A stretch of 64,000 nt of DNA from assembly GCA_965261545.1 (NCBI GenBank), contig CBDHDF010000010.1, positions 992,001-1,056,000 of the forward strand. Reading direction: 5' to 3'. This stretch comes from Bdellovibrionales bacterium. Lineage in GTDB: Bacteria; Bdellovibrionota; Bdellovibrionia; Bdellovibrionales; UBA1609. Positions 13,875 through 32,659 of this stretch are shown piece after piece. The position numbers were made by a program, and so were the translations under genes. Every line of letters starts with the position of its first letter. Positions within the stretch are counted from its first letter, which is position 1. Below the pieces are notes generated by a model. The model had not been told where the DNA came from, did no database searches, and worked only from the letters and a program-made list of their open reading frames with translations.

Positions 13875-15920
13875 TTAGTAACGTAGCTTTTTAATTGATC
13901 CGGACTTAAGTTTTTTAAAGTCAGATATGGTTTTTTTCTTATCTGGAAAGAGATAAGCCTTTGTTTTCTCGTGTTTTTTGACAATGATCCTCCCTTGTTT
14001 AATATGGTGATAAATCCAATGAACTTTAACATCAATAAGTGCTGCAATTTGAGATGTTGTGAGGCTTCCCTCGACTTTGGTCGGAAAAGAGTGCTTTCGA
14101 TTCCGATAGATTTTATTGTTTAGTCTATAGGACTTCACAGTATTTCTGAGAAAAGTGGTATCCATTGGTGATCTGAATCCTTTTTGGGTCAATAGTTTGG
14201 CAATATCTTCATCAGACACCCCAAGCTTGACCTGATGCGCAATTATTTTCTTTATCGTTTCAGAAGATGACAGTTCATCAAAAGATCCAACTTTGATTGG
14301 AATGCTAGCTTCTGTTGTATCTCCTCCAATCCAAACAATTCTCAGTGCAACCATATCTCTTTTCTTTCTGTGAATGACAACCTTTTCAACCAATGTTCTA
14401 AGAATTTTCTTTTTCATGTCTTTGGTCAATATCTTATCCTCCCATAGCGAAGGTAGTTTTTGATTCAAATCTGAAAATTCTCTTTTCATTTTTTGAGAGA
14501 TCACAGTTGGAATACGCTGTTCATTCTTAACCCTCTCTAGGTGATCTTCGGCTTTTTTAAGTATTACTAAAGCCTCTTCCCATTGTGTTTCTAATTCATC
14601 TGCAACAAGTCTATTCTCAGGGTCTACTTTGCGATACCTCTTTTCTACCAGTTGAGCTTCATACCTTAAACGCTGAATTTGCTGAATGTGTGATTTGTAA
14701 ACCTCTTGGTCAATTTTTGACTTATTTTCTAAAGCCTTGGCATACAAGTCTAGCTCGACAGGGGAAAGAACCTTAAAAAAAGCGTTTACTACATAATCAT
14801 CGATTGGATCTGTAGGAATGAATTGGCAAGTAGGTTCCCGATGTTGTTGGCGTAGATAGTTGCATAAGTATCGAGTTGCTGTTTTATACTGCACTGACAT
14901 TTTGTGGCCACATTCTCCACAATAGACTATCCCATGTAAGAGGGCCTTACCAGGGCGAGGTATGCCTCTTGTTTTATTACGAGTATATTCAGTGTAGTTG
15001 TCTTTTAGAATTTCTTGTATCTTTAAGAATGTATTCCAATCGATATATTTAGGATATTTATCTTTCACAACAATTTTCCATTCATTAAGTGGAAGCTTTG
15101 TACGCTTAAGTTTTCCAGCTAAGTCTTTTCTACGGTATTCAGCTTTGCCATATACAAAAGTTCCGCTATAAGCTGGATTCTTCAAAATAGAAAGTATGGC
15201 TGCCTTGGATGTTTTTTTCCAATGAATACTTTTTACAAAATCAACTCTTGGAAGTAAGAGGTTGTTATCGTTAAAAAATCGCGACACCTTACCGGCTGAT
15301 TTCAGTTTTAAGAATATAGTAAATACTAAATTTATGCGATCTTGTAAATCTTTATTTGGATCTTTTAGCACTTTACCTTGTTCTGTTCGAATAAAACCAA
15401 CTGGTAATTTAAGAGCTAAATCTCCTCGCTTGGCTTTGTTGAGAAGACCTGCTGTTAATCTATTGCGTATCGTAAATAATTCCATTTCTGAGAGTTGACC
15501 TTTAAACCCGAGTAACATTCTTCCATTAACATTAGAAGGGTTATAAATAGACTCTCTATCAGCAATGAGGCAATTCTTAAAAGCACACAGATCAAGTAAT
15601 TGGTACCAGTCCGTACAGTTTCTAGATAGACGAGTGACATCGTACGATAGAATAATACCAATTTTTTCCAAGGTCACTTCTGCAAGGATATTCTTGAAGC
15701 CTTCTCTAAACTGTATACTACTTCCTGTGATCCCCAAATCATCATCGACAATTTCAATACTATCTTCTTGCCAACCTAATTCAGTAGCTCTTTGCCTGAG
15801 TGAGTATTGAAGGTCGAGACTTTCTTTGTTTTTGATGGCTTGCTGAGGGGTCGACTGTCTGATGTATATTATGGCTTTTCTCTTTAAGTGAATAGGTGTA
15901 ATCAATTCCGATGTTTTCAT
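13875..15920 (-). CDS. Large serine recombinase with Zn ribbon, coiled coil and C-terminal HTH-like extension (Y4bA-like)
   Basis: YIRQST catalytic motif, D.TRLSRN, LKNPAYSG, CGECG, VDPENRLVA.ELE..W. Start taken at MKTSELIT (15920). Confidence 0.92.
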   Translation of the reverse strand: MKTSELITPIHLKRKAIIYIRQSTPQQAIKNKESLDLQYSLRQRATELGWQEDSIEIVDDDLGITGSSIQFREGFKNILAEVTLEKIGIILSYDVTRLSRNCTDWYQLLDLCAFKNCLIADRESIYNPSNVNGRMLLGFKGQLSEMELFTIRNRLTAGLLNKAKRGDLALKLPVGFIRTEQGKVLKDPNKDLQDRINLVFTIFLKLKSAGKVSRFFNDNNLLLPRVDFVKSIHWKKTSKAAILSILKNPAYSGTFVYGKAEYRRKDLAGKLKRTKLPLNEWKIVVKDKYPKYIDWNTFLKIQEILKDNYTEYTRNKTRGIPRPGKALLHGIVYCGECGHKMSVQYKTATRYLCNYLRQQHREPTCQFIPTDPIDDYVVNAFFKVLSPVELDLYAKALENKSKIDQEVYKSHIQQIQRLRYEAQLVEKRYRKVDPENRLVADELETQWEEALVILKKAEDHLERVKNEQRIPTVISQKMKREFSDLNQKLPSLWEDKILTKDMKKKILRTLVEKVVIHRKKRDMVALRIVWIGGDTTEASIPIKVGSFDELSSSETIKKIIAHQVKLGVSDEDIAKLLTQKGFRSPMDTTFLRNTVKSYRLNNKIYRNRKHSFPTKVEGSLTTSQIAALIDVKVHWIYHHIKQGRIIVKKHEKTKAYLFPDKKKTISDFKKLKSGSIKKLRY

Positions 15921-16017
15921 ATATAATCTCCTCAATGGCTAAAGTTAAGTCTTTGATGACTTGCTTTTGAATTTCTTTTGGCAGTCTTGGCCAGACATCT
16001 TTTGGTGTAATTGACAT
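15781..16017 (-). CDS. Small hypothetical protein of LSR element A
   Basis: VWPRLPKEIQKQVI helical ORF overlapping the recombinase start. Resembles small ORFs that often precede such recombinases. Confidence 0.45.
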   Translation of the reverse strand: MSITPKDVWPRLPKEIQKQVIKDLTLAIEEIIYENIGIDYTYSLKEKSHNIHQTVDPSASHQKQRKSRPSILTQAKSY

Positions 16018-16211
16018 AGTTGCTCTTCCAGTTGTTGAGTCAGTGAAATTAGCTCCTGAATTGCAACTATACCAAGTTTGCTTGGGGCCTGCCTATCGTA
16101 GAGATTGGGGTTCAGATTGGTAGAAGCCAATGGTATGCGTAGCGTCATGTGGTTCTTGTATTGAACAAAAGCAAAAGTAGATTTTTTCTGATTTTTAGGT
16201 ATGGAAATCAC
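15945..16211 (-). CDS. Small hypothetical protein of LSR element A (Y4bD-like)
   Basis: First ORF of the element, with a LRIPLASTNL motif. Confidence 0.5.
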   Translation of the reverse strand: MISIPKNQKKSTFAFVQYKNHMTLRIPLASTNLNPNLYDRQAPSKLGIVAIQELISLTQQLEEQLCQLHQKMSGQDCQKKFKSKSSKT

Positions 16212-18148
16212 CTTGAATGACTTCCTATAAAGGGGATGGGAGGGGTCCGTGACCCTTAGCTCTCTAAAACCTCTGTCGTTGACGGGGGTATTAAGTAATG
16301 GACTCGTTTGATTTCGTCACTGTACTGTCCAATCTCATTTTCTTACACGGCTCAATCTTTTGATCTCTTGCATCTGAAACTAAAGAGGCGCTAATAATTC
16401 CCCAAGTTTCTTCACTTATTTGAACAATCAAGTCCTGTAAGGTGGAGTGAGCGTAATTTTCTTCCAATTCAAGGCCCAGAAAAGCTCTGGTGGATACTGA
16501 ATCGACAAGATTAAAGGCTAACGCACGATAGGAAAGACCTCTTATGGATTTAAGAATAGCCACCTTGAGAACTTGCTCCGATGTCATACCAATATCACCA
16601 GAATCTTTCTTTTCTTTAACAAGGTCTTCATGAACCATATGGGCAAACTCTGGATGGCGATCAATGATGTTATTAATTTGCTGCAATTCTGTACTGAGTT
16701 GGTGGTTAGGATATTGGGAAAAGAGTCCCAACTGTGTCTTCTTCAAATGGCGCATAGTCCCCCCTTTGGTGAAAGTTTCTCTTTAATTTTTATATTAACA
16801 TACGTTTTTTTGAGGGAAAAAAGTGAGCAAGGATGTCTTTTAAGAAGAAAAAAATCAGAGAGGTTCTCGGAGAACATGGATAAGAATTCTACCTCATAGA
16901 GAGGTTCCCACGCCTCCTAAAACCTACATAAAAAATAAATGAAGAATAAAATATCAAAAATTATTTCTCTGAAAAAACACGTCAAGTATTTTTTGAAGTT
17001 GATGCGCAACGTAATGTTATTTCCCTGAAGGAGGTTTGAAATCACCACGGTGGAAACACAGGTTGATCCAACTCTTCCTCTCATATCAAGTAACCAGTTG
17101 ATAGCCACATAAGTCACTGAAAGGGAGGGGCTGTGAAAGGTTCGTCAAGAGAGGGGGGGGAACTTATTTTATTTTTCCGTTTTATGTAAGTAACTGAATT
17201 TACACGGATTATGTTTGATGGACTCCATTTTAAAGCATAAAATCTAAAGGGAAGGCATGTAAATACTTAAAACTACTTAACTTTCTTCCCTGGACAGGAA
17301 CTAGCTATGGCACGAATCATGGCCATACCAGATACGCAGTCAGCTTTAGACATTGCATAGGTTAAACGAATGCCTGAATATTCAAGAACCTTATACATAC
17401 GATTTTGTTCCGAAGATATTTGGCGGATCGTTTTTGTACGATAACGAGCCAAAAGTCTAATAGAACGAATCTCACGTGGAGGAATGAAGCTAGCTCTTAG
17501 AAGACCACAAGCACCAAGCTCTGCAATCCACTGGCTATCCAACACGTCAGTTTTTTTACCAGTAATATTTTTGACATGAAAGGCATTGATAACATCTACT
17601 TCATAACCTTTTTCTGTCAAATCATCGTATAAAGAATTCCAATAAATCCCTGTGCTCTCAAAAAGAACTCTCTCAACCTTATGTGGCTTCATCCAAGAGC
17701 GCATTCTAGGAAAATTTTTTGGAAAATTCTTGAACTCTTTTGTGAAAAACTTCTTCTTACCGTCTTCCACTTTGACAATCGTACACATCAACATATGTTG
17801 ATGAACATCTATTCCACAAACAGAACTATAAATAATATCCACATGACTCCTCCTTTCTGTTAGAAAAAAAGAAGGTGATAAAACTAGAGCCTTGGGATTT
17901 TGCCATAAATTCTAAAGCGAAAATAGGTCAACTTACTATGAATCTCCGGGGTAGTTTGGACGCACGAATCCACTATCCGTTCTTCGAATTTTTTCAAATG
18001 TCCGAGTTTTTAAATCATCCTACATTACATGAAATCATACTTTTTTAACGCTCTAATCCACCTTGGTGCATTTTTTTTCACCATGAGCTTTTCATAGTCA
18101 ATTCCAGGGTCTTTGTAGGGGGTGTCATTACTTATGACTGTAAAATTG

Positions 18149-20058
18149 GTTACGGTAGGAATGCGTGTTGCCACGCACCCCCCGCACAGATCCGGACGTG
18201 CTCGTTAAAGCATCCGGCTCCTACTTCAGGTGGTACCGCATAGCGAACCTATCTGTTGGCCACGGGTGGCGTATGGATATACGAGGCCAGAATAGACGAA
18301 TCATTCTATCCAACCTCTTCCACGAGAATCTCCGTCCACGCTGTGAGCGTCGTCGGATGGCTTTCATCCAAGCACTCCTGATTGCGCAAATAAATTTTCG
18401 TAGGTACACCGTACTTCCTGGAACCGCAAAATAATTGAGCCAGCCTTTGATGACCAAACCCAACCACTTTGCACATTCCGCTAGGTCCCTCGTGTAGACT
18501 CGTTTTCTCAGACTCAGCTTCAGGTGCTGTAAGGTCCGGCAGACTCTCTTGGATATGGGTTTACGCCCTATCCTAAAGCCTCCTTTCCTCGTGCGCACAC
18601 AAAAGTGAGTGAATCCTAAGAAATCAAAAGTCTCGGAGTGACCAAGACCTCGTCGGCGGCAATTTGCATTTGCAAATCGACCGAACTCTATGAGGCGAGT
18701 TTTCCCCGGATGTATTTCTAGAGAAAACTCCTTAAGCCTGCGCTTCAGATCATTGAGGAAGCGTTCAGCTTCCCCCTTGTATTGAAAGCCTACGACAAAG
18801 TCATCGGCGTAGCGAACAAATATCATGTCCCCTGTGGCATGGTCCTTGCGCCATTTCTGCATCCATAAATCCAACACATAATGTAAATATATGTTGGCGA
18901 AGATAGGGGAAATATTTGAACCTTGAACGGTCCCTCTCCCTGTGTCTTCTAAGACGCCTTGAGATAGCACTCCGCACTTGAGCCACTTTTCAAAGAGACG
19001 AATGAGTCTCTCATCTCCGATGAGGTGTTTTAGAAAGCGAATTAGAGTCTTTCTATCCACGCTATCGAAGTAGGATTTTATATCCGCATCCAATATGTAG
19101 CTGATCTTCCTACGCTCTATTCCGTAAGCCAGAGCATCCAACGCATTATGCGCTCCACGCCCTGGACGGAATCCGTAGCTATAACCGAGGAAATGTTCCT
19201 CGTAGATGGGAGAGAGGATGCTGTCTACAACGGCCTTCTGGACAATCTTGTCCTCCAAGGCCAGGACACCCAAGGGTCTTGTGCCCCCGTCTGACTTGGG
19301 TATTTCTACCCGCAAGACAGGTTGCCCTTTGTAAGCACCCGTGTGGACCCGACGATGTAAATCGAACAGGTTTTGCACGAGGTTCTCGCCATACTCCTTC
19401 CATGTTAAATGGTCCACTCCCGCACTGGCTCCCCTATTCAAATAGAGGTAAGCCAAGTGGAGGGCTTCCACAGATACATGGTGAAGCAAGCAAGTGAGCT
19501 TACCATCCTTTCTCTTTGCTGCTATACGGACTCGCTCCGTCGCCTGTGACACCTTTTCCCAACTCTGTGTTCGGCAGATGCTTTGACGGATTGAGTTCCC
19601 TTCAGTTCCACCCCTTCGCTCCAAGGACTCCGCTGGGCTTGTAGGCCCTTTGTTCGTCCTCTTCATCGCTACTATGAGTGGATCCGATTTCTTTATTTCG
19701 TTCATGGGTTACGGTTACCTCCTTTCCCATGTCGCCCGTCGCACATGACGGGGTTAAATAAAGACCTCCCGAGGTCCCGAGATAAGATTCATGTATGTGC
19801 CAGTTTCTACGACGCCGTGGAGTCACCCACCAACTCACCATAGCGCTGGTGGGTATGTTGCGTTCGGCTACCATGACAGCCTCCGCACTCCAGAGTTCGG
19901 CATTTTCGACGCTCAATTATTTGGCCCACACACACCCCTACCGATACATCGCTTCGGCCTCACGGCCGACAGCGCACGGCTTGGGGAGAGAAGTGGTCGG
20001 TTGACCTTCCTCTCGGGGGACTCTAACCCCCTATCTTATCTCAGTTCGCCCGGCGAAC
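18149..20058 (-). mobile_element. Group II intron, copy 1 (1910 nt, intact)
   Basis: RT/maturase ORF. Domain V GAGCCGGATGC...GCACGTCCGGATC and domain VI ending CCTACCGTAAC. 5' end GTTCG. Confidence 0.95.
18221..19705 (-). CDS. ltrA: Group II intron reverse transcriptase/maturase, no endonuclease domain
   Basis: RPLG, SYGFRPGR, DADI..YFD, QGS.ISP, YADD, FDFLGF, GWLNYF. Ends HPWP..RF. Confidence 0.95.
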   Translation of the reverse strand: MNEIKKSDPLIVAMKRTNKGPTSPAESLERRGGTEGNSIRQSICRTQSWEKVSQATERVRIAAKRKDGKLTCLLHHVSVEALHLAYLYLNRGASAGVDHLTWKEYGENLVQNLFDLHRRVHTGAYKGQPVLRVEIPKSDGGTRPLGVLALEDKIVQKAVVDSILSPIYEEHFLGYSYGFRPGRGAHNALDALAYGIERRKISYILDADIKSYFDSVDRKTLIRFLKHLIGDERLIRLFEKWLKCGVLSQGVLEDTGRGTVQGSNISPIFANIYLHYVLDLWMQKWRKDHATGDMIFVRYADDFVVGFQYKGEAERFLNDLKRRLKEFSLEIHPGKTRLIEFGRFANANCRRRGLGHSETFDFLGFTHFCVRTRKGGFRIGRKPISKRVCRTLQHLKLSLRKRVYTRDLAECAKWLGLVIKGWLNYFAVPGSTVYLRKFICAIRSAWMKAIRRRSQRGRRFSWKRLDRMIRLFWPRISIRHPWPTDRFAMRYHLK

Positions 20059-21275
20059 CATGGCATTGCCCGCACCAGTTGGTTACGGTAGGAATGCGTG
20101 TTGCCACGCACCCCCCGCACAGATCCGGACGTGCTCGTTAAAGCATCCGGCTCCTACTTCAGGTGGTACCGCATAGCGAACCTATCTGTTGGCCACGGGT
20201 GGCGTATGGATATACGAGGCCAGAATAGACGAATCATTCTATCCAACCTCTTCCACGAGAATCTCCGTCCACGCTGTGAGCGTCGTCGGATGGCTTTCAT
20301 CCAAGCACTCCTGATTGCGCAAATAAATTTTCGTAGGTACACCGTACTTCCTGGAACCGCAAAATAATTGAGCCAGCCTTTGATGACCAAACCCAACCAC
20401 TTTGCACATTCCGCTAGGTCCCTCGTGTAGACTCGTTTTCTCAGACTCAGCTTCAGGTGCTGTAAGGTCCGGCAGACTCTCTTGGATATGGGTTTACGCC
20501 CTATCCTAAAGCCTCCTTTCCTCGTGCGCACACAAAAGTGAGTGAATCCTAAGAAATCAAAAGTCTCGGAGTGACCAAGACCTCGTCGGCGGCAATTTGC
20601 ATTTGCAAATCGACCGAACTCTATGAGGCGAGTTTTCCCCGGATGTATTTCTAGAGAAAACTCCTTAAGCCTGCGCTTCAGATCATTGAGGAAGCGTTCA
20701 GCTTCCCCCTTGTATTGAAAGCCTACGACAAAGTCATCGGCGTAGCGAACAAATATCATGTCCCCTGTGGCATGGTCCTTGCGCCATTTCTGCATCCATA
20801 AATCCAACACATAATGTAAATATATGTTGGCGAAGATAGGGGAAATATTTGAACCTTGAACGGTCCCTCTCCCTGTGTCTTCTAAGACGCCTTGAGATAG
20901 CACTCCGCACTTGAGCCACTTTTCAAAGAGACGAATGAGTCTCTCATCTCCGATGAGGTGTTTTAGAAAGCGAATTAGAGTCTTTCTATCCACGCTATCG
21001 AAGTAGGATTTTATATCCGCATCCAATATGTAGCTGATCTTTCTACGCTCTATTCCGTAAGCCAGAGCATCCAACGCATTATGCGCTCCACGCCCTGGAC
21101 GGAATCCGTAGCTATAACCGAGGAAATGTTCCTCGTAGATGGGAGAGAGGATGCTGTCTACAACGGCCTTCTGGACAATCTTGTCCTCCAAGGCCAGGAC
21201 ACCCAAGGGTCTTGTGCCCCCGTCTGACTTGGGTATTTCTACCCGCAAGACAGGTTGCCCTTTGTAAGCACCCGT

Positions 21276-23213
21276 TACTCCTCGGACACAATAGACAACT
21301 TTTCCATTGAAATTTCCATAAATATATATAATCATTCACTTTATGCAAGTGGTCGTAAATATGCTCACTATCGTTGGCATCCACCTGAGGATTCTTCCCA
21401 TTTAGCTTCGAACCATAGTCAAAGGAATGATAATGGCCCACCAAACAAAACATCAAAATCCATGGACAGCTCAGCTAAAAAGTGTCTATCAAAGCGACCA
21501 AACCACACGGATTCAACAGACATACGAAGTTGTTGTTCCAAAAATAAAGAAACAATTAAAGCAGAAAGTAAAACAACAGAAAATAATGGAGGTTAAAAAT
21601 GGAAACATCAGTAGCTCTTTATTGTCGAGTGTCCTCAGATAAACAAGCTCAAGAGGGAACCATTGATTCACAGATTTCTAGTCTTCACGATTTCGCTAAG
21701 GAACACAATTTTTGTGTAGAGGAGGATCTTATATTTATGGATAATGGTGTGAGTGGCGCCACCCTTGTTCGTCCTGCTTTAGACTCTCTTCGCGACAAAG
21801 CTTTTTCTGGGGAGGTTACAAAGGTACTTGTGTTATGTCCAGACAGATTAGCTCGTAAATATGCCCATCAATTGATTCTAATTGAAGAATTTCAGAGGCT
21901 AGGTGTTGAAATTATTTTTTCTAATAGAGATATTACAAATTCACCCGAAGATCAGCTTTTGCTACAAATACAAGGAGTCATTTCAGAATATGAAAGAGAA
22001 AAAATTATGGAAAGAAGTCGAAGGGGTAAACTTCAAAAGGCTTCTAAGGGCTTTGTTAGCGTTTTATGTGGAGCCCCCTATGGTTATATATATATTCTGA
22101 AAACAGACTCCGCTGACGCACGATATGAAATCCATCCAGAAGAGTCTAAAGTTGTTAAAAATATTTTTCAAATGTATTGCCGAAACAAACTAAGTATTAG
22201 AGCAATTGCAAAGGAATTAAATATAAGGGGGGTGCCTACTAGAAGACAACAAGGTATTTGGGGGCGTTCAACTATCTTGTGTATGCTTAAAAATCCCGCT
22301 TATTATGGACAAGCTGCTTTTAGAAAGACTATCAAGGTAGAAAGGTTGCGTCCAACCAAGTTCGCAAGAGACAATAATTTTTATCCAAAAAAACATAAAT
22401 CAAGTTCTTCCAATCGAAATAAAAAGGATTGGATATATATTCCCGTTCCATCTATAATTTCTTCAAAAACTTTTCAAGATGCGTCCAGCCAATTGGAAGC
22501 TAACAAAAAACTTTCCTCTCGGAATAATAAAAAATATGAGTATTTGTTAAGTGGTCTTTTACGATGCAAAGAGTGTGGTTATTCGATCTATGGCAAACCT
22601 GCTTCTCACTCAAGGTATAAGCTTTGTTATTATCGCTGCATGGGACAAGATGGTTATAGGTGGCCAGCTAAAGGTAGAGTTTGCTCATCTCATCCCGTAA
22701 GAGTTGAAGTTTTAGATGACTTAGTTTGGGAACAAACAGTTAAATTACTTGAAAATCCTCAGACAGTTATAGATGAGTATACAAGTAGAATTCATGAGCA
22801 AAAAGGTGAACAACAATCATTGGAAAAATTAATTGTAAAAAAGGCTCAGGAGATTCGTCAAATAACACATGAAAAGGAACGTCTCTTGGATCTTTATCAA
22901 AATGGAACTCTAAATCTATCAGAAATAGAGTCACGATTAAAAAAAATAAGAGGAAAAATAAAGCAACTTGAAAATGAAAAGCAATCTTTAGAGTATGAGC
23001 AAAGGCAAGAAGGACAACAACTACAGCTTGTAGATCAACTCCAAGAATTCCAAAAAAAAGTGAGTGCCAATTTAAAGGTATTGAGTTTTGAGCAAAAAAA
23101 GGAGATTGTAAGGCTACTGGTGAAGGAGGTTGAGGTGAACATTAAGGCAAGTGAAATTGTAGTTCGACACGTTGTGCCAACCTCCAAAAGTTTGCCATTG
23201 TGTCCGGGGAGTA
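21276..23213 (+). mobile_element. Minimal LSR element B (1938 bp plus GT core)
   Basis: GT at both junctions (21274-75, 23214-15). Terminal IR TACTCCTCGGACACAAT / ATTGTGTCCGGGGAGTA (16/17). Confidence 0.9.
21427..21642 (+). CDS. Small hypothetical protein upstream of the recombinase (possible accessory/directionality factor)
   Basis: AAGGA upstream, overlaps the recombinase start, contains QTYEVVVP. Function is inference only. Confidence 0.4.
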   Translation: MIMAHQTKHQNPWTAQLKSVYQSDQTTRIQQTYEVVVPKIKKQLKQKVKQQKIMEVKNGNISSSLLSSVLR

Positions 23214-23233
23214 GTGTGGACCCGACGATGTAA
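21599..23233 (+). CDS. Large serine recombinase; stop codon supplied by flanking target DNA
   Basis: YCRVSS, D.GVSG...RPAL, PDRLAR, PYGY, LKNPAYYG, CKECG. The last 20 nt lie outside the element. Confidence 0.93.
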   Translation: METSVALYCRVSSDKQAQEGTIDSQISSLHDFAKEHNFCVEEDLIFMDNGVSGATLVRPALDSLRDKAFSGEVTKVLVLCPDRLARKYAHQLILIEEFQRLGVEIIFSNRDITNSPEDQLLLQIQGVISEYEREKIMERSRRGKLQKASKGFVSVLCGAPYGYIYILKTDSADARYEIHPEESKVVKNIFQMYCRNKLSIRAIAKELNIRGVPTRRQQGIWGRSTILCMLKNPAYYGQAAFRKTIKVERLRPTKFARDNNFYPKKHKSSSSNRNKKDWIYIPVPSIISSKTFQDASSQLEANKKLSSRNNKKYEYLLSGLLRCKECGYSIYGKPASHSRYKLCYYRCMGQDGYRWPAKGRVCSSHPVRVEVLDDLVWEQTVKLLENPQTVIDEYTSRIHEQKGEQQSLEKLIVKKAQEIRQITHEKERLLDLYQNGTLNLSEIESRLKKIRGKIKQLENEKQSLEYEQRQEGQQLQLVDQLQEFQKKVSANLKVLSFEQKKEIVRLLVKEVEVNIKASEIVVRHVVPTSKSLPLCPGSSVDPTM

Positions 23234-25035
23234 ATCGAACAGGTTTTGCACGAGGTTCTCGCCATACTCCTTCCATGTTAAATGGTCCACTCCCGCACTG
23301 GCTCCCCTATTCAAATAGAGGTAAGCCAAGTGGAGGGCTTCCACAGATACATGGTGAAGCAAGCAAGTGAGCTTACCATCCTTTCTCTTTGCTGCTATAC
23401 GGACTCGCTCCGTCGCCTGTGACACCTTTTCCCAACTCTGTGTTCGGCAGATGCTTTGACGGATTGAGTTCCCTTCAGTTCCACCCCTTCGCTCCAAGGA
23501 CTCCGCTGGGCTTGTAGGCCCTTTGTTCGTCCTCTTCATCGCTACTATGAGTGGATCCGATTTCTTTATTTCGTTCATGGGTTACGGTTACCTCCTTTCC
23601 CATGTCGCCCGTCGCACATGACGGGGTTAAATAAAGACCTCCCGAGGTCCCGGGATAAGATTCATGTATGTGCCAGTTTCTACGACGCCGTGGAGTCACC
23701 CACCAACTCACCATAGCGCTGGTGGGTATGTTGCGTTCGGCTACCATGACAGCCTCCGCACTCCAGAGTTCGGCATTTTCGACGCTCAATTATTTGGCCC
23801 ACACACACCCCTACCGATACATCGCTTCGGCCTCACGGCCGACAGCGCACGGCTTGGGGAGAGAAGTGGTCGGTTGACCTTCCTCTCGGGGGACTCTAAC
23901 CCCCTATCTTATCTCAGTTCGCCCGGCGAACCATGGCATTGCCCGCACTGATTGGCATGACTGATTCCCCTTAGCATAGCGTCATTGATGTTCTATAAAG
24001 ACCTCCAATCTTTAACCAAGGAGGTCGAAATGAGAACAAAGATGGATCATGAGCGTTACACAAAAATAAAATCATTAATAAAGGCAAATATTCCCGACCG
24101 AGAAATCAGTCGCCGCATGAAATGCTGCACCAAGACTCTTAGAAAGATAAGACGTGGTCTTTTAACAGACCCCAAGGATTGGAAGACCCAAAGAGAAATT
24201 CCCCCTTGGTCTTACGGTATAGATTGGAAGATTATTGAGAAGGAGATTGAGGATAGGCATTGTTTAAGTGACGTTTGGGAGGAAAAATTTCTGAAGGTCA
24301 TTAGCTACCCCCAGTTTACGAGGGAGTTTCATAAGCAATTTCCAAAAGCTGGCAAAAGGATTATTACCTTGCGTGATTTTCAGCCAGGCCACCAAGTTGA
24401 GGTTGATTACGCAGGATTTCAGCCAGAGTGGATCGATGAAGACCTTAATATTCATAAGGCCCATATATTTTGCTCAAATCTATGTTTCTCTCAGCGTATT
24501 TTTGCTTATGGCTCTTTGAGCGAATCTAGTGAAGATTTTCTTCACGCTCACGTTCTGATGTTTGAATATTACGGTGGGGTTCCGAGAGTGGTTGTTCCTG
24601 ATAATTTAAAGACTGGAGTGAACACACCCCATTTGTATGATCCAGAGTTGAATAAATCCTACCAAGAGCTTTTGGAACACTATGACACGGTGGCTGTTCC
24701 CGCTCGAGTTCGTCGTCCCCAGGATAAAAGCCTTACTGAGAATGCCGTGAAGCTCGTTACAAGGGCCCTCAGGTTTATGTACAGACGAGAGACCTTCACC
24801 AGTCTGGATCAAATTAATAAGGCTTTAAGGGAGGTGTGCGAGAAGATAAATGCTCGCCCTCACACAAGATTTAAGGTCTCTCGCAATGAAAAATTTCAAC
24901 GAGAGGTAAAAACTTTAAAACCCTTGCCTTCTTTTCCCTACCGGTGGGGACGTTGGGAGAAGAAAAAACTCCACCAAGACTGTCATGTGAGCGTTGAATC
25001 CAACTTCTACTCGGCTCCGTTTCAGCACCGAGGGG

Positions 25036-25085
25036 TGTTAGGCGCCAATTAAAATTGGCCATTTTTAGAAGCCGTCGCCAATGAA
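25036..25085 (+). mobile_element. Orphan terminal fragment of a second, probably IS21-like, element
   Basis: TGTTAGGCGCCAATTAAAATTGGCC...GTCGCCAATGAAAA: starts TG, has an internally repeated CGCCAAT.AAAA motif, and matches neither flanking element. Confidence 0.5.
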
Positions 25086-26129
25086 AAACGGCGTACATTA
25101 AACTTTTTTCTCATTTTATCAACAATATCTGAAAGCGTCTTGCCTTCAAAAGTATTACCAGGGAAAACCTCAAAACCTAAAGGGATGCCATCCCGATTCA
25201 CCAACAAACCAAAGACAACTTGGGTGCAGTCTGATCGTCTCTCTTTACTATAGCCAAATTGACGAAGTTTCCCTAAGTCTGTTCTTGTACTCTCGAAGCG
25301 TAAGGTTGTTAAATCATACAACACAATGTCTACTTGGAAATTAAATAAATCTCGCCCCACCCAATAAAGCGAGTTCTCTATTTCATCCTTATGGGAGGCA
25401 AGTAAGTCCATAGACCGATAAATATGCTGGAGACTCAAATCACCCTTAATCATGTCTGGGTAAAAAGATTTTTGCCAATACTCAAAAACCTTTAACTTGG
25501 AACTAGGAGCAATAAATCGGCTGGCAACTAAGGTAAAAATCACCTTACATAAATCAAATTGAACTTTCTCATGAGAATCTTTTATGTCTTTGAGGGTCTT
25601 ATTGATACCCAGTTGATCAAACAACTTTTGTAAAATCAGCAAGGGACCCAAAATGAAAGTCTCTTCGATGTAAAGCTCCTTAGCCAATTGACTCACAGTG
25701 AGAAGCTCTCGGTGGCGGGATACGGCCTGCGCCAAACTATTAATCTTATCCTCTCCTCCTTCCAGCGCGTCATGCGAGCCTTGCGCACTGATAAAACTGC
25801 GCCAAACTATTAATCTTATCCTCTCCTCCTTCTCCAGCCTTACCTAAGGACATGAGCATGCGTTTTTTGGATTTGCCTTTTTCTCTGTAGGACTCCACAA
25901 GGTGGTAGTAGCACTGACCTTTTGAGTTTTTAGTCGTTTGGATGTACATGAGGATATTTTCTACATATTTCTATGATATATCAATATTTAAAACGATAAA
26001 ATCCTATTTTGTTTTCTACACTTTTTTTACGTCAATTTTAATTTTTCCAGCAGCTACCATTATATTTCAGTACAACCCCAATTTCTGGAAATTTCGCATT
26101 TTAACGCAGATGCTGCTGTCAAACTCGGG
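25086..26129 (-). mobile_element. Truncated IS1634 (left end and 5' part of transposase)
   Basis: Near-identical to 54050-55021, including the TIR. Breaks at ...KFNVRRF and carries a 70-bp insertion. Confidence 0.9.
25727..25832. repeat. 36-bp direct repeat flanking a 34-bp unrelated insert (repeat-spacer-repeat geometry)
   Basis: CTGCGCCAAACTATTAATCTTATCCTCTCCTCCTTC at 25727-25762 and 25797-25832. Single copy and no insert in the sister element (54347-54382). Confidence 0.92.
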
Positions 26130-26601
26130 ATTTACTTTCAAAAACAGCTCCTCGCTCGCCACAAGAGGACCAAAGGTAAACTCGGAGAGTACATCACCAA
26201 AAACGAACACCTCCCGGAGCCCAGTCGCGCCTACAAGGAGGCCACTCCCCAGAACATTCTTATTCAAGCAAGTATGATTTGTAAAGAGCTTGAAAACTTC
26301 ATTGAGGAGCTTTTTCAGGGTGGGACCATTGAAAATCTCAGAAGAGCTATGGGCTTTGTAAGCTCCTGTCACAAAGAAATCCAGAAAGAGGGCAAGGAAA
26401 AGTCCCTTCCTCTCATTATCAAAGCCCTTGAGGACTGCAAGCAGTGGGAGAAAAGGAGGGTTAGATATTTTCAGCAACAACTCCATTTCTATAAAGGGCA
26501 AAAAATAAAAAAGGTGAACGAGAAAATAGATCGTAAACAAGGCAACCCTTATTTGCGACATAACGAAAATCCAAATAACCAAAGCCCCAAGGAGGTGCCA
26601 G

Positions 26602-27354
26602 ATGGATGAAGTACAAATCAAAAACCACATGCATGAGTTGAAGCTCTATGGAATGTTAGACAGCCTTGAAGTGGCGCTGGATAACACAAGCCACAAGACT
26701 CAAGCATTGGATCTATTGAACGAGCTGTTATTTGCAGAAGTGGAGGCTCGGAAAATCCAATTCAGCCAAAGACTTCTCAAGACCTCAAAGCTGCCTCACA
26801 AGGTCAGAGGTGAGGCATTTGACCACCATGCCAAAAGGTCTATTAGTAAAAGAGAGGTGGATAGGCTTCAAACTTTATCATGGGTTAAGGAGCAAAGGTC
26901 TATCATTGTCGAAGGGCCAACGGGGGTGGGTAAAACCTTCTTGGCCCAGAGCCTGGGACACCAGTGTTGTCAATCCAGAATCTCCACACTGTTTATAGAC
27001 ATCAACATATTTCTAGAAACCTTGGCCCTGGAAAGGCACTCAGGAAGGTATTTGAACTACTTGCGTCGTCTGGGCCGCCCCCAAGTGTTAATTTTTGATG
27101 ACTTTGGATTAAGGAAGTTCTCCCAAAGTGAATCCACAGACTTCTGCGATATTTTAAAGTTTCGTTCCGATAGGTCCACCGTTATTACCACTCAACTGCC
27201 AATAACGCATTGGTCAGAAATTATTGATGATGAGGTGCTGGCAGATACTATCATCGACCGTTTGAAGCATACCGCCATAAAAATTTTACTTAAAGGAGAG
27301 AGTTATCGAAAAATCCAGGGAACAAAACTTGACCAGGACTTTTCCCTAAAATAG
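26602..27354 (+). CDS. istB: IS21 helper ATPase IstB
   Basis: GPTGVGKT Walker A, LIFDDFG Walker B, ADTIIDRL, GESYRK. Confidence 0.93.
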   Translation: MDEVQIKNHMHELKLYGMLDSLEVALDNTSHKTQALDLLNELLFAEVEARKIQFSQRLLKTSKLPHKVRGEAFDHHAKRSISKREVDRLQTLSWVKEQRSIIVEGPTGVGKTFLAQSLGHQCCQSRISTLFIDINIFLETLALERHSGRYLNYLRRLGRPQVLIFDDFGLRKFSQSESTDFCDILKFRSDRSTVITTQLPITHWSEIIDDEVLADTIIDRLKHTAIKILLKGESYRKIQGTKLDQDFSLK

Positions 27355-28609
27355 GAAGAAATAGGATTACAAATTAACTAAAATTTTCCCCAGAAATGGG
27401 AAGGAAAATCATCAATGACGCATTGAAATAGGGAAAGTGAGGGTAATGGGTGCAACCAGTGCGGGCAATACGCGCAATTGTACACTTATGACTGAATAAA
27501 CAACTCCCATCATTTTGTGACCAACGGCAATCACTGATCTCTTGTGCCCACGCCTTATAACAAGTGATTGGTATTTGCCTTTGAATTGTGAATTCGTCTT
27601 AATAGCACTATTGGCCATCTCACATACCAACGATTTCACATATGTGTTCGCTTTCCTCGTTCGTGAAGACTTTTTTTTTCCTGCGCTCTCATTATTGGAT
27701 GGGCAAATCCCCATCCAGGAGCAAAAATTTCCTTTATTTTTAAAAGACTTCACATTGCCTCCTATTTCTGCAATCAAAAGCGCTGCACTTAATTCGTCAA
27801 TTCCAGGTATAGTCTGGAGTAGATGCCACTGCCTTTCATAGGGTTTCATACGAATGAAAAGTTCTTCTTCAATTTGAGAGCATTCTTTTTTCAAAAAATC
27901 TATTCGATCAAGAATGCGTTGAAGAACAAAACGATTTTCTTCCGTCATCTTTCCCGACAGGGCGTAAGAAAATTCTTCGGTCTTTTGACGTAAAGACCCT
28001 CTGGCAAGAGACATCAATTTAGAAACTGATCTCTCTCCATTAGCTATGGCACGAATCATGGCCATACCAGATACGCAGTCAGCTTTAGACATTGCATAGG
28101 TTAAACGAATGCCTGAATATTCAAGAACCTTATACATACGATTTTGTTCCGAAGATATTTGGCGGATCGTTTTTGTACGATAACGAGCCAAAAGTCTAAT
28201 AGAACGAATCTCACGTGGAGGAATGAAGCTAGCTCTTAGAAGACCACAAGCACCAAGCTCTGCAATCCACTGGCTATCCAACACGTCAGTTTTTTTACCA
28301 GTAATATTTTTGACATGAAAGGCATTGATAACATCTACTTCATAACCTTTTTCTGTCAAATCATCGTATAAAGAATTCCAATAAATCCCTGTGCTCTCAA
28401 AAAGAACTCTCTCAACCTTATGTGGCTTCATCCAAGAGCGCATTCTAGGAAAATTTTTTGGAAAATTCTTGAACTCTTTTGTGAAAAACTTCTTCTTACC
28501 GTCTTCCACTTTGACAATCGTACACATCAACATATGTTGATGAACATCTATTCCACAAACAGAACTATAAATAATATCCACATGACTCCTCCTTTCTGTT
28601 AGAAAAAAA

Positions 28610-29805: not shown

Positions 29806-30539
29806 GCATTAAATTGCTACCATAAGGAGAATGACATGACTTTTATGAAAAATATGAAAGAAAAGATAGCATTACTCACCTTACTTACATGCAGCTTATG
29901 GCTTATCTTACTTGCGCCCACATCCTCTCTTGCTGTCGTCAGTGGTGGTGGCTGTGGAAGCGAAGAGCCCCAAGCTCCCAAGTATGATCTTAAGAAACAC
30001 AAAGAGAATACCGCCACCATGGGCTTTCTACTGTACCAATACCTAAATGAAAATGTAGACCAAGTTGCCATTGTGGCACGGGCAGGAGGAGATGTCTCTA
30101 AAGAAAATTTTCGTTATCCCTCTCAACTAAAGTATACCCATGCAGGTATTGCTTGGAAAAACTCCAAGGGCCATTGGTATTTCAAACATGTTCTCAATAC
30201 TTGTGCAGGACCAACCTCTGACATATACGATCAAAGCCTTGCTCAATTTTTTAATGATAGCCCATACTTCTATGATTTCATAGTTGGGTCCCCCTCCAAG
30301 GAATTACAAGACAAAATGATCCAAGTATTAGAGGATGAGAAGCTTGTCCAAAAAATTCACAACCCCGACTACAGCAATATAGCAAATCCATTCAATAGAG
30401 TGTATCAGAATTCCAATGGATGGGTATTAAATGCCCTAGCCGCAGCCCAAAGCGGGAAATCGACACTCCGTGGTCTCATGAATTATTATAAAAGACAAGG
30501 CTTTCGACCTAGTCAAGTTGAGGTTGGATTTTTTAAAAG

Positions 30540-32449
30540 GTTACGGTAGGAATGCGTGTTGCCACGCACCCCCCGCACAGATCCGGACGTGCTCGTTAAA
30601 GCATCCGGCTCCTACTTCAGGTGGTACCGCATAGCGAACCTATCTGTTGGCCACGGGTGGCGTATGGATATACGAGGCCAGAATAGACGAATCATTCTAT
30701 CCAACCTCTTCCACGAGAATCTCCGTCCACGCTGTGAGCGTCGTCGGATGGCTTTCATCCAAGCACTCCTGATTGCGCAAATAAATTTTCGTAGGTACAC
30801 CGTACTTCCTGGAACCGCAAAATAATTGAGCCAGCCTTTGATGACCAAACCCAACCACTTTGCACATTCCGCTAGGTCCCTCGTGTAGACTCGTTTTCTC
30901 AGACTCAGCTTCAGGTGCTGTAAGGTCCGGCAGACTCTCTTGGATATGGGTTTACGCCCTATCCTAAAGCCTCCTTTCCTCGTGCGCACACAAAAGTGAG
31001 TGAATCCTAAGAAATCAAAAGTCTCGGAGTGACCAAGACCTCGTCGGCGGCAATTTGCATTTGCAAATCGACCGAACTCTATGAGGCGAGTTTTCCCCGG
31101 ATGTATTTCTAGAGAAAACTCCTTAAGCCTGCGCTTCAGATCATTGAGGAAGCGTTCAGCTTCCCCCTTGTATTGAAAGCCTACGACAAAGTCATCGGCG
31201 TAGCGAACAAATATCATGTCCCCTGTGGCATGGTCCTTGCGCCATTTCTGCATCCATAAATCCAACACATAATGTAAATATATGTTGGCGAAGATAGGGG
31301 AAATATTTGAACCTTGAACGGTCCCTCTCCCTGTGTCTTCTAAGACGCCTTGAGATAGCACTCCGCACTTGAGCCACTTTTCAAAGAGACGAATGAGTCT
31401 CTCATCTCCGATGAGGTGTTTTAGAAAGCGAATTAGAGTCTTTCTATCCACGCTATCGAAGTAGGATTTTATATCCGCATCCAATATGTAGCTGATCTTT
31501 CTACGCTCTATTCCGTAAGCCAGAGCATCCAACGCATTATGCGCTCCACGCCCTGGACGGAATCCGTAGCTATAACCGAGGAAATGTTCCTCGTAGATGG
31601 GAGAGAGGATGCTGTCTACAACGGCCTTCTGGACAATCTTGTCCTCCAAGGCCAGGACACCCAAGGGTCTTGTGCCCCCGTCTGACTTGGGTATTTCTAC
31701 CCGCAAGACAGGTTGCCCTTTGTAAGCACCCGTGTGGACCCGACGATGTAAATCGAACAGGTTTTGCACGAGGTTCTCGCCATACTCCTTCCATGTTAAA
31801 TGGTCCACTCCCGCACTGGCTCCCCTATTCAAATAGAGGTAAGCCAAGTGGAGGGCTTCCACAGATACATGGTGAAGCAAGCAAGTGAGCTTACCATCCT
31901 TTCTCTTTGCTGCTATACGGACTCGCTCCGTCGCCTGTGACACCTTTTCCCAACTCTGTGTTCGGCAGATGCTTTGACGGATTGAGTTCCCTTCAGTTCC
32001 ACCCCTTCGCTCCAAGGACTCCGCTGGGCTTGTAGGCCCTTTGTTCGTCCTCTTCATCGCTACTATGAGTGGATCCGATTTCTTTATTTCGTTCATGGGT
32101 TACGGTTACCTCCTTTCCCATGTCGCCCGTCGCACATGACGGGGTTAAATAAAGACCTCCCGAGGTCCCGGGATAAGATTCATGTATGTGCCAGTTTCTA
32201 CGACGCCGTGGAGTCACCCACCAACTCACCATAGCGCTGGTGGGTATGTTGCGTTCGGCTACCATGACAGCCTCCGCACTCCAGAGTTCGGCATTTTCGA
32301 CGCTCAATTATTTGGCCCACACACACCCCTACCGATACATCGCTTCGGCCTCACGGCCGACAGCGCACGGCTTGGGGAGAGAAGTGGTCGGTTGACCTTC
32401 CTCTCGGGGGACTCTAACCCCCTATCTTATCTCAGTTCGCCCGGCGAAC
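30540..32449 (-). mobile_element. Group II intron, copy 3 (1910 nt, intact)
   Basis: Near-identical to copy 1. Boundaries confirmed by in-frame restoration of the host gene. Confidence 0.95.
30612..32096 (-). CDS. ltrA: Group II intron reverse transcriptase/maturase
   Basis: Identical protein to 18221-19705. Confidence 0.95.
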   Translation of the reverse strand: MNEIKKSDPLIVAMKRTNKGPTSPAESLERRGGTEGNSIRQSICRTQSWEKVSQATERVRIAAKRKDGKLTCLLHHVSVEALHLAYLYLNRGASAGVDHLTWKEYGENLVQNLFDLHRRVHTGAYKGQPVLRVEIPKSDGGTRPLGVLALEDKIVQKAVVDSILSPIYEEHFLGYSYGFRPGRGAHNALDALAYGIERRKISYILDADIKSYFDSVDRKTLIRFLKHLIGDERLIRLFEKWLKCGVLSQGVLEDTGRGTVQGSNISPIFANIYLHYVLDLWMQKWRKDHATGDMIFVRYADDFVVGFQYKGEAERFLNDLKRRLKEFSLEIHPGKTRLIEFGRFANANCRRRGLGHSETFDFLGFTHFCVRTRKGGFRIGRKPISKRVCRTLQHLKLSLRKRVYTRDLAECAKWLGLVIKGWLNYFAVPGSTVYLRKFICAIRSAWMKAIRRRSQRGRRFSWKRLDRMIRLFWPRISIRHPWPTDRFAMRYHLK

Positions 32450-32659
32450 CATAGGTGCTGCCTTCGTAGATAATGCCTCTACAGATGATCACTCTAACTT
32501 ATTTGGTGGATGGTTTAACTTTGTATCAGCAGCTTCGCTTTTTAAATATATAGAGAAAACGGATACACTCACCCATGCAGAAATCTGCCATCCTAAAGGG
32601 TGTGACATTCCACTCACCATTCTCAACAAAAGGTAAGTGATTTCTTACTAAACTTTATA

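Follow-up and report, generated by a model that had tools for sequence, protein, structure and literature searches.

In the archaeal elements SSV1 and pT26-2, integration by a tyrosine integrase splits the integrase open reading frame (ORF) into two inactive pseudogenes and excision rebuilds it (PMC7253208), and in mycobacteriophage BPs attP lies within the repressor coding sequence, where integration removes a degradation tag (PMC3694055). Movement through circles with 2-bp cores is driven by large serine recombinases (LSRs) in Tn4451/Tn4453 (TnpX) and Tn5397 (TndX), which combine mobilisation and resistance cargo with low target specificity and use no cofactor (PMC5704250). Other LSRs interrupt conserved genes, with distant LSRs sharing one target gene cluster (Durrant et al., PMC10083194), and the recombinase sr2WO moves the 65-kb phage WO of Wolbachia and targets VNTR-105 (PMC5062602, PMC9203015). 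Here we analysed a window of 64,000 nucleotides (the whole stretch of DNA considered; Bdellovibrionales bacterium, contig CBDHDF010000010.1, positions 992,001 to 1,056,000) that contains a 1938-bp serine-recombinase element, and we consider it likely that this element, of the size of an insertion sequence (IS), carries attP inside the 3' end of its own recombinase gene, with recombination switching the C-terminus of the recombinase. To our knowledge, how serine integrases choose their direction is an active question, and the known solutions use a separate cofactor or none.

With the SSV-type integrases the element shares a recombination site inside the recombinase ORF, but here a serine recombinase is shortened by no more than its last ~35 conserved residues, with all three Pfam domains left in place. 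As in BPs, the C-terminus of a protein differs between the free and integrated states because an att site lies within its coding sequence; in this element, however, it is the recombinase that is switched, a conserved piece is what integration takes away, and no repressor is present. LSR-driven movement on a presumed circle with 2-bp cores would be what it has in common with Tn4451/Tn4453 and Tn5397; unlike them, it has no cargo, targets one motif of reverse transcriptase (RT) genes and tolerates several cores. TnpX also acquires a promoter where its circle closes, and its cores are GA. The IS607 family has no terminal inverted repeats and places its DNA-binding domain N-terminal to the catalytic domain (PMC6188088), whereas the element has 28-bp arms and a catalytic domain at LSR residues 5-151. 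It shows the traits of the LSR class, namely a catalytic serine domain, a recombinase domain and a four-Cys zinc-ribbon domain, a coiled coil, and a 2-bp core between inverted half-sites. The sharing of one target gene by distant LSRs recalls the study of Durrant et al.; the terms group II intron, RVT_1, GIIM, reverse transcriptase and maturase are unmentioned in the accessible content of 8 supplementary files of that study (PMC10083194), as are group II intron and RVT_1 in the accessible text of its preprint (bioRxiv 10.1101/2021.11.05.467528). In searches of the open literature we found no description of an LSR element targeting group II intron RT genes, nor of a serine recombinase completed across attP or of such a directionality switch for serine integrases. 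The element is the serine-recombinase equivalent of integrases with att inside their gene, carried by a group II intron parasite of IS size.

Comparison of filled with empty alleles placed the element at 21276-23213 of the window, with a copy of the 2-bp crossover core GT on both sides (21274..21275 and 23214..23215, neither assigned to a strand); the empty allele CACCC-GT-GTGGAC is present in 4 intact intron copies of the genome, 2 of them in the window. The element ends in inverted arms of 28 nt each that are 86% complementary. The left arm (21276..21303, plus strand) is the element half of attL and also forms codons 1-9 of a tail that is encoded only in the circle, and the right arm (23186..23213, minus strand) is the element half of attR and encodes the family motif PLCxGS on the plus strand. 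The LSR gene runs stop-free through the right arm (residues 1-539, 21599..23215, plus strand, comprising the catalytic, recombinase and zinc-ribbon domains and the coiled coil) and borrows its last codons from the target (VDPTM and a stop, 23216..23233, plus strand), so that the integrated gene (21599-23233) encodes 544 aa ending in CPGSS-VDPTM*, the last five residues being target DNA. Pfam domains PF00239 (E-value 6e-32, residues 5-151), PF07508 and PF13408 were detected, and the nucleophile S12 and the cysteines C323, C326, C347 and C362 are invariant among 136 sequences. An AlphaFold 2 (AF2) model of this short form predicts a standard LSR, with fold matches to the SPbeta, phiC31, Bxb1 and LI/A118 integrases and coiled-coil helices at 402-487, and gives its last 18 residues (527-544) a predicted local distance difference test (pLDDT) below 50. 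A second, distant LSR with 29% identity is encoded in the same genome (G000:C11:892898-894391).

Joining the ends by script yields a 1940-bp circle in which the recombinase continues into the left end as one 645-aa frame ending in TENNGG, with its TAA (21594-21596) two bases before the recombinase ATG (21599) and a Shine-Dalgarno-like GGAGG of the LSR (21588..21592, plus strand) within the last two codons of the frame. A first-pass annotation made from the sequence alone had claimed the 1938-bp stop-free element, its terminal inverted repeats, the GT core and the 645-aa joined frame; all of these coordinates hold, and the feature itself is confirmed. Its further claim that the integrated and joined forms encode different recombinases also stands, as read from the sequences. 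At the local base composition, the chance of the 106 open codons contributed by the left end is ~0.0007; when the protein of an overlapping small gene is taken as given it is ~0.001, in a test that covered 53 codons and met no stop where 3.8 were expected.

To follow this frame in homologues we used a family set of 100 sequences, made of the two types of element found in this genome (A, which includes the window copy, and B) and 98 of 112 loci; 13 distant or partial loci were left out, and one more locus with both ends, outside that set, was not counted. Six of the 100 have no N-terminus, 94 were scored, and 61 have both ends above the score threshold. The right arm lies in the LSR frame in all 61 and is stop-free to its end in 60, the remaining one being a frameshifted assembly. 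Past the junction, where an early stop would have spoken against the first-pass reading, 61/61 elements keep the circle frame open over at least 24 codons, compared with 8 and 18 for the other frames, and its tails have a median of 56 codons (range 24-114). Codons 11-24, which lie outside the arm, are open in 51/51 clusters at 90% identity and 29/29 at 70%, where composition predicts 28.2 and 15.7, with the caveat that these kin are not fully independent; at 70%, the other frames are open in only 7 and 15 of 29. Over codons 11-33 of 19 unique close-clade sequences, the ratio of non-synonymous to synonymous substitution rates (dN/dS) is 0.35, against 1.39 and 1.56 in the other plus-strand frames. 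In these sequences H20, Y23 and R27 are invariant while their codons vary synonymously, none of the 23 tail codons has an invariant third position, and G26 uses all four Gly codons. Third positions are also the most variable in a second clade (0.65 vs 0.45 and 0.41; 14 sequences). A start codon occurs within the first 12 tail codons in just 13 of the 61 elements, at varying positions. We conclude from these sequence comparisons that the tail encoded by the joined ends is family-wide and under protein-level selection: the integrated element encodes a recombinase that ends in PLCxGS and arbitrary target residues, and a conserved C-terminal piece of ~35 codons without a conserved start codon (21276..21380, plus strand), held at the opposite end, comes into frame only when the ends are joined.

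Two other sources of the open frame were rejected. Translation arriving from an upstream RT in sense orientation would pass into the +1 frame and meet a stop after a median of 10 codons; the open circle frame is therefore not explained by an RT-tail fusion. An antisense leader gene, suggested by five A/B changes that share one codon phase, has stops in its frame in all 19 sequences. The first base 3' of the right arm is T in only 2 of 60 elements, which avoids a stop in the junction codon and may simply belong to the arm. The tail has no Pfam match at the curated cut-off, no PDB sequence match and no match in a plasmid collection. When 50%-representative proteins were searched with the tail profile, 38 matches were obtained, mostly the same frame called with target-derived starts.

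The far part of the circle frame behaves differently. From 21381 it remains open to the TAA (21381..21596, plus strand), overlapping a small conserved gene of 69-71 aa (21427..21642, plus strand; second ATG at 21433) that itself overlaps the LSR start. Over the core of this gene in 9 elements, its own frame gives a dN/dS of 0.41, compared with 1.58 for the circle frame. The circle frame reaches to within 40 nt of the LSR start in 13/20 close-clade elements and in 0/41 others, so the whole-circle ORF is a trait of one clade. The first-pass annotation had treated all 106 codons, and with them the whole-circle ORF, as the unit to be conserved, and here it has to be cut back, since only ~35 codons are kept, tails range over 24-114 codons and the far part is constrained in the frame of the small gene; the dN/dS test it had proposed thus points to protein-level selection on the near tail only. 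Its caveat that the small ORF may be the real constrained gene was right about that gene, yet the near tail is real as well. The far ~70 codons are best explained, from these ratios, as passenger sequence over the small gene. The whole-circle ORF, more open than expected by chance in this copy, may matter for translation but is not a conserved unit.

A profile of the small gene seeded with 20 distant elements matches 41/61 elements at an E-value of at most 0.001, 21 of the 41 being non-seeds; the window copy scores only 0.009. The small protein has no Pfam match at the curated cut-off and no PDB match, and its AF2 model is one long helix with a predicted template modelling score (pTM) of 0.33. 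For the tail and the small protein together, PHROGs gave 1 weak match in 45, and the best Atlas score, 0.80, is a lead only. Known small LSR cofactors of 7-9 kDa bind the junction of coiled coil and zinc domain (PMC11795197, PMC11722253), and by this analogy the small protein is probably a candidate directionality or excision cofactor of the LSR.

A natural counterpart of the joined form is found in phage WO. The LSR of WOVitA1 is 36% identical to that of the window and groups inside the family in a quick tree, whose three outgroup rows sit on very long branches and carry no information. Its length is 579 aa in the genome derived from particles but 550 aa in the record of the prophage (L158:1311-3234 and L159:1311-3147); the two forms diverge directly behind the arm motif, and the junction is arranged as it is here, arm, 4 nt, arm. 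Scored with a tail profile built from 16 elements chosen by their right-end motif, the 44-aa virion tail reaches 12.5 bits, against a maximum of 8.2 for 1000 shuffles and 0.7 for the prophage tail; the part beyond the arm alone scores 9.5, with a shuffle maximum of 9.1 (1000 shuffles). The phage attP was Sanger-sequenced (PMC5062602). In the accessible text of two reports attP is placed between gwv_1089 and the recombinase, and a changed C-terminus is not mentioned (PMC5062602, PMC9203015). A homologue of the small gene, gwv_1155, precedes the phage WO LSR (E-value 7.6e-7) and would on that account be a candidate excision cofactor of the phage. sr2WO and the window element thus have in common the arm motif, the 4-nt spacing, a homologous read-through tail and a homologous small upstream gene, although the one moves a 65-kb phage into VNTR-105 and the other is 1938 bp and targets intron RT genes. 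We infer that the infecting WO phage can only make the long form and the prophage only the short form.

At the level of the family, at least 3936 homologues were found at an E-value of at most 1e-40 among 8000 scored. The best 120 were inspected by eye; nearly all of them finish with a PLCxGS-like motif and, behind it, a tail unrelated to the others. Some (P0010, P0013-P0015, P0039, P0068, P0071, P0084, P0094 and P0107) have a ~40-aa insertion just before PLCxGS, which suggests that the linker to the tail is flexible in length. A subgroup with the shortest tails (24-37 codons) has a ~600-nt leader (L160:1919-4150, L085, L091, L094, L095, L097, L100, L103, L104, L115, L119, L120 and L138), which in the plasmid example L160 contains an annotated ribbon-helix-helix gene. 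Among 122 flanks, 13 were too short to read; 47 of the 109 readable ones end in PQG and 43 begin SPLL-like, while 3 are other RT sequence and 16 are without an assigned motif. The family thus mostly inserts into group II intron RT genes (90/109 readable flanks with the PQG or SPLL motif), and the flanks place its target at the codon between PQGGx and SPLL, in either orientation: 27 elements have one PQG and one SPLL-like flank, and 12 of these are inserted in sense and 15 in antisense. In 18 of the 27 the two cores match, and in 9 they differ. The window copy uses another site within an RT gene. Close relatives were not found in 60 kin genomes, where the best full-length matches have 28% identity or less.

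The genome of the window holds 5 full type A copies, at most one base apart and all at the same intron base, and 2 full type B copies with 97% identity, along with broken pieces; the type B copies border on different RT genes and meet them at the PQG motif. Neither type has a stop in the 106-codon frame, and all five internal A/B differences in it are non-synonymous. At the 28 LSR residues that differ, B is nearer to the family at 16 and A at 11, with one tie. Alleles and flanks are common to filled and empty intron copies. At the left junction of one B copy stands GC, whereas the empty allele reads AC; this foreign GC, like the cores that differ in 9/27 elements, is as would be left by a circle carrying its previous core. 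Two broken B left ends (G000:C10:10006-10146 and G000:C7:151713-151829) have an extra A at the junction that would shift the circle frame, and both are interrupted by an identical inserted sequence. Elsewhere, element ends are joined to non-RT or unmatched DNA (left flank at G000:C10:793053, right flank at G000:C2:409442), which suggests rearrangement between copies; the end at the G000:C10:793053 left flank is also a loose end in run X3.

LSR biochemistry and phage WO suggest that the element moves via a circle, formed by cuts with a 2-nt stagger. Excision would fall to the shortened enzyme from the integrated copy, probably with the small upstream protein as cofactor, and integration to the complete enzyme made from the circle, with the tail probably packed on the zinc-ribbon or C-terminal domain; recombination would thereby switch the C-terminus of the enzyme itself. 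That this LSR clade, from 2-kb group II intron parasites to Wolbachia phage WO, sets direction by rewriting its C-terminus, the tail converting an excising into an integrating enzyme, is a tentative proposal, to which we give somewhat less than an even chance. A predicted complex of LSR residues 300-539 with tail residues 1-38 scored 0.57, against 0.02 for the best control, and lends weak support to the switched C-terminus (contact agreement of at least 65%, partner pLDDT of at least 52, no interface given). The mark for such scores is reached by 116/157 solved complexes and 2/215 mismatches; halves of split genes can pass it by likeness to solved structures, and the tail has no PDB sequence match.

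Several observations weigh against the proposed switch. Passing scores of at most 0.60 comprise 18/157 solved complexes and both passing mismatches, a range in which passes are wrong more often than they are right. The contigs of 4 runs, all from one sample of one study, contain the empty-site joint only and no circle junction of this element (contigs drop rare forms); five junction-pattern scans of genome contigs and viral contigs gave 0 matches; and of 54 plasmid records matching an LSR, the 50 listed include no 2-kb circle. Among the 38 tail matches, 30 were read and none of these is a full-length LSR-tail fusion, and none of the 38 is a single-match protein longer than 179 aa. The GC/AC mismatch in the B copy is one base and could be a mutation. 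Two like flanks are seen at 10/61 loci, so some metagenome contigs are chimeric or rearranged. Type A itself has radical changes at conserved positions (W227L, R342L, E222G, and S307 for P) and a longer branch than B (0.04 vs 0.005, quick tree), and the window copy may on these grounds be weakened.

These changes in type A would also suit a suicidal recombinase, whose short form is dead and whose excision needs full-length enzyme from another circle, copies spreading mainly as cargo of introns or duplicated DNA. The tail is under purifying selection and so may be needed for folding, the five A copies differ in sequence by one base at most and occupy an identical position in near-identical introns, in several cases with flanks in common, and the archaeal SSV-type integrases provide a precedent (PMC7253208). 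We nevertheless regard this as unlikely: a 2-kb element without replication or packaging genes would have no other route to its first circle, type B copies occupy several different RT genes, and prophage WOVitA1 yields attP particles despite its short integrated gene, although another prophage could complement it. Slightly less credible again is a switch in amount, in which both forms carry out both reactions and the tail stabilises the protein, or target-derived ends destabilise it, giving a burst of activity after excision. This would leave the conserved small gene, kept even beside the phage WO LSR, unexplained, and the conserved aromatic and basic residues of the tail suggest a folded contact instead; it would account for the highly variable integrated ends among 120 homologues and for the pLDDT below 50 of residues 527-544, and both an attP-switched C-terminus read by proteases (PMC3694055) and TnpX-type enzymes that do both reactions without a cofactor (PMC5704250) are on record.

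Two further readings concern the left-end frame. A long tail could carry ribosomes over the small gene and silence it in the circle, with re-initiation at the LSR start, and the stop between the Shine-Dalgarno-like site and the ATG, the 0 stops against 3.8 expected in this copy and the 13/20 close elements whose frame ends within 40 nt of the LSR start (including L001 and L077, with the small gene in another relative frame) are in line with this. The 13 are kin, however, 7/20 close elements stop earlier, 0/41 distant ones share the trait, the far part has a dN/dS of 1.58 and all five internal A/B differences change amino acids, which leaves this explanation improbable. Least probable of all is that the frame is a by-product of DNA or RNA constraints, such as an att site or a promoter, or a separate peptide. 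In its favour, the inverted arm supplies the first 9 codons, the frame is indeed called by gene callers with target-derived starts, and 21307-21335 contains a weak sigma-70-like site, though no more than chance would give (2 such sites against 1.1 expected). Past the arm, however, only one frame shows conservation that tracks codon position, a conserved start is lacking, and the virion junction of WOVitA1 is read through.

The host of the window copy is a group II intron with approximate limits 20079..23948 (minus strand; Rfam group-II-D1D4-6 at 23676-23897). The element splits its opposite-strand RT gene at residue 122, leaving a 5' part (residues 1-122, 23214..23578, minus strand) and a 3' part (residues 122-494, 20154..21275, minus strand). 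An outward ATG in the left end of the element is in frame with the 3' part and opens a 393-aa ORF (20154-21335, minus strand) that could express most of the interrupted RT, depending on the non-canonical site of this copy. A neighbouring intact copy of the same intron (18146..20075, minus strand; RT at 18221-19705) supplies the empty site. The window holds three copies of this intron (18146-23948, with two in tandem, and ~30539-32466, minus strand), and several copies in the genome lie in an array of short (~21-nt) tandem repeats. The window also contains a dense IS nest (15781-17842 and 23985-28581) of IS21 istA/istB, IS110 copies and a DUF772 transposase, in which a further transposase-like piece keeps istA and istB apart. 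The element itself contains the LSR and one small gene only, without cargo, mobilisation, conjugation or phage structural genes.

The element is a minimal parasite of group II introns, which disables the RT and tolerates different cores and both orientations. Proteins of its clade are annotated in databases in a shortened form with random ends, and mining the clade for genome-editing tools would clone an incomplete enzyme. If true, the self-switched C-terminus would be a built-in directionality switch, directly testable with two constructs.

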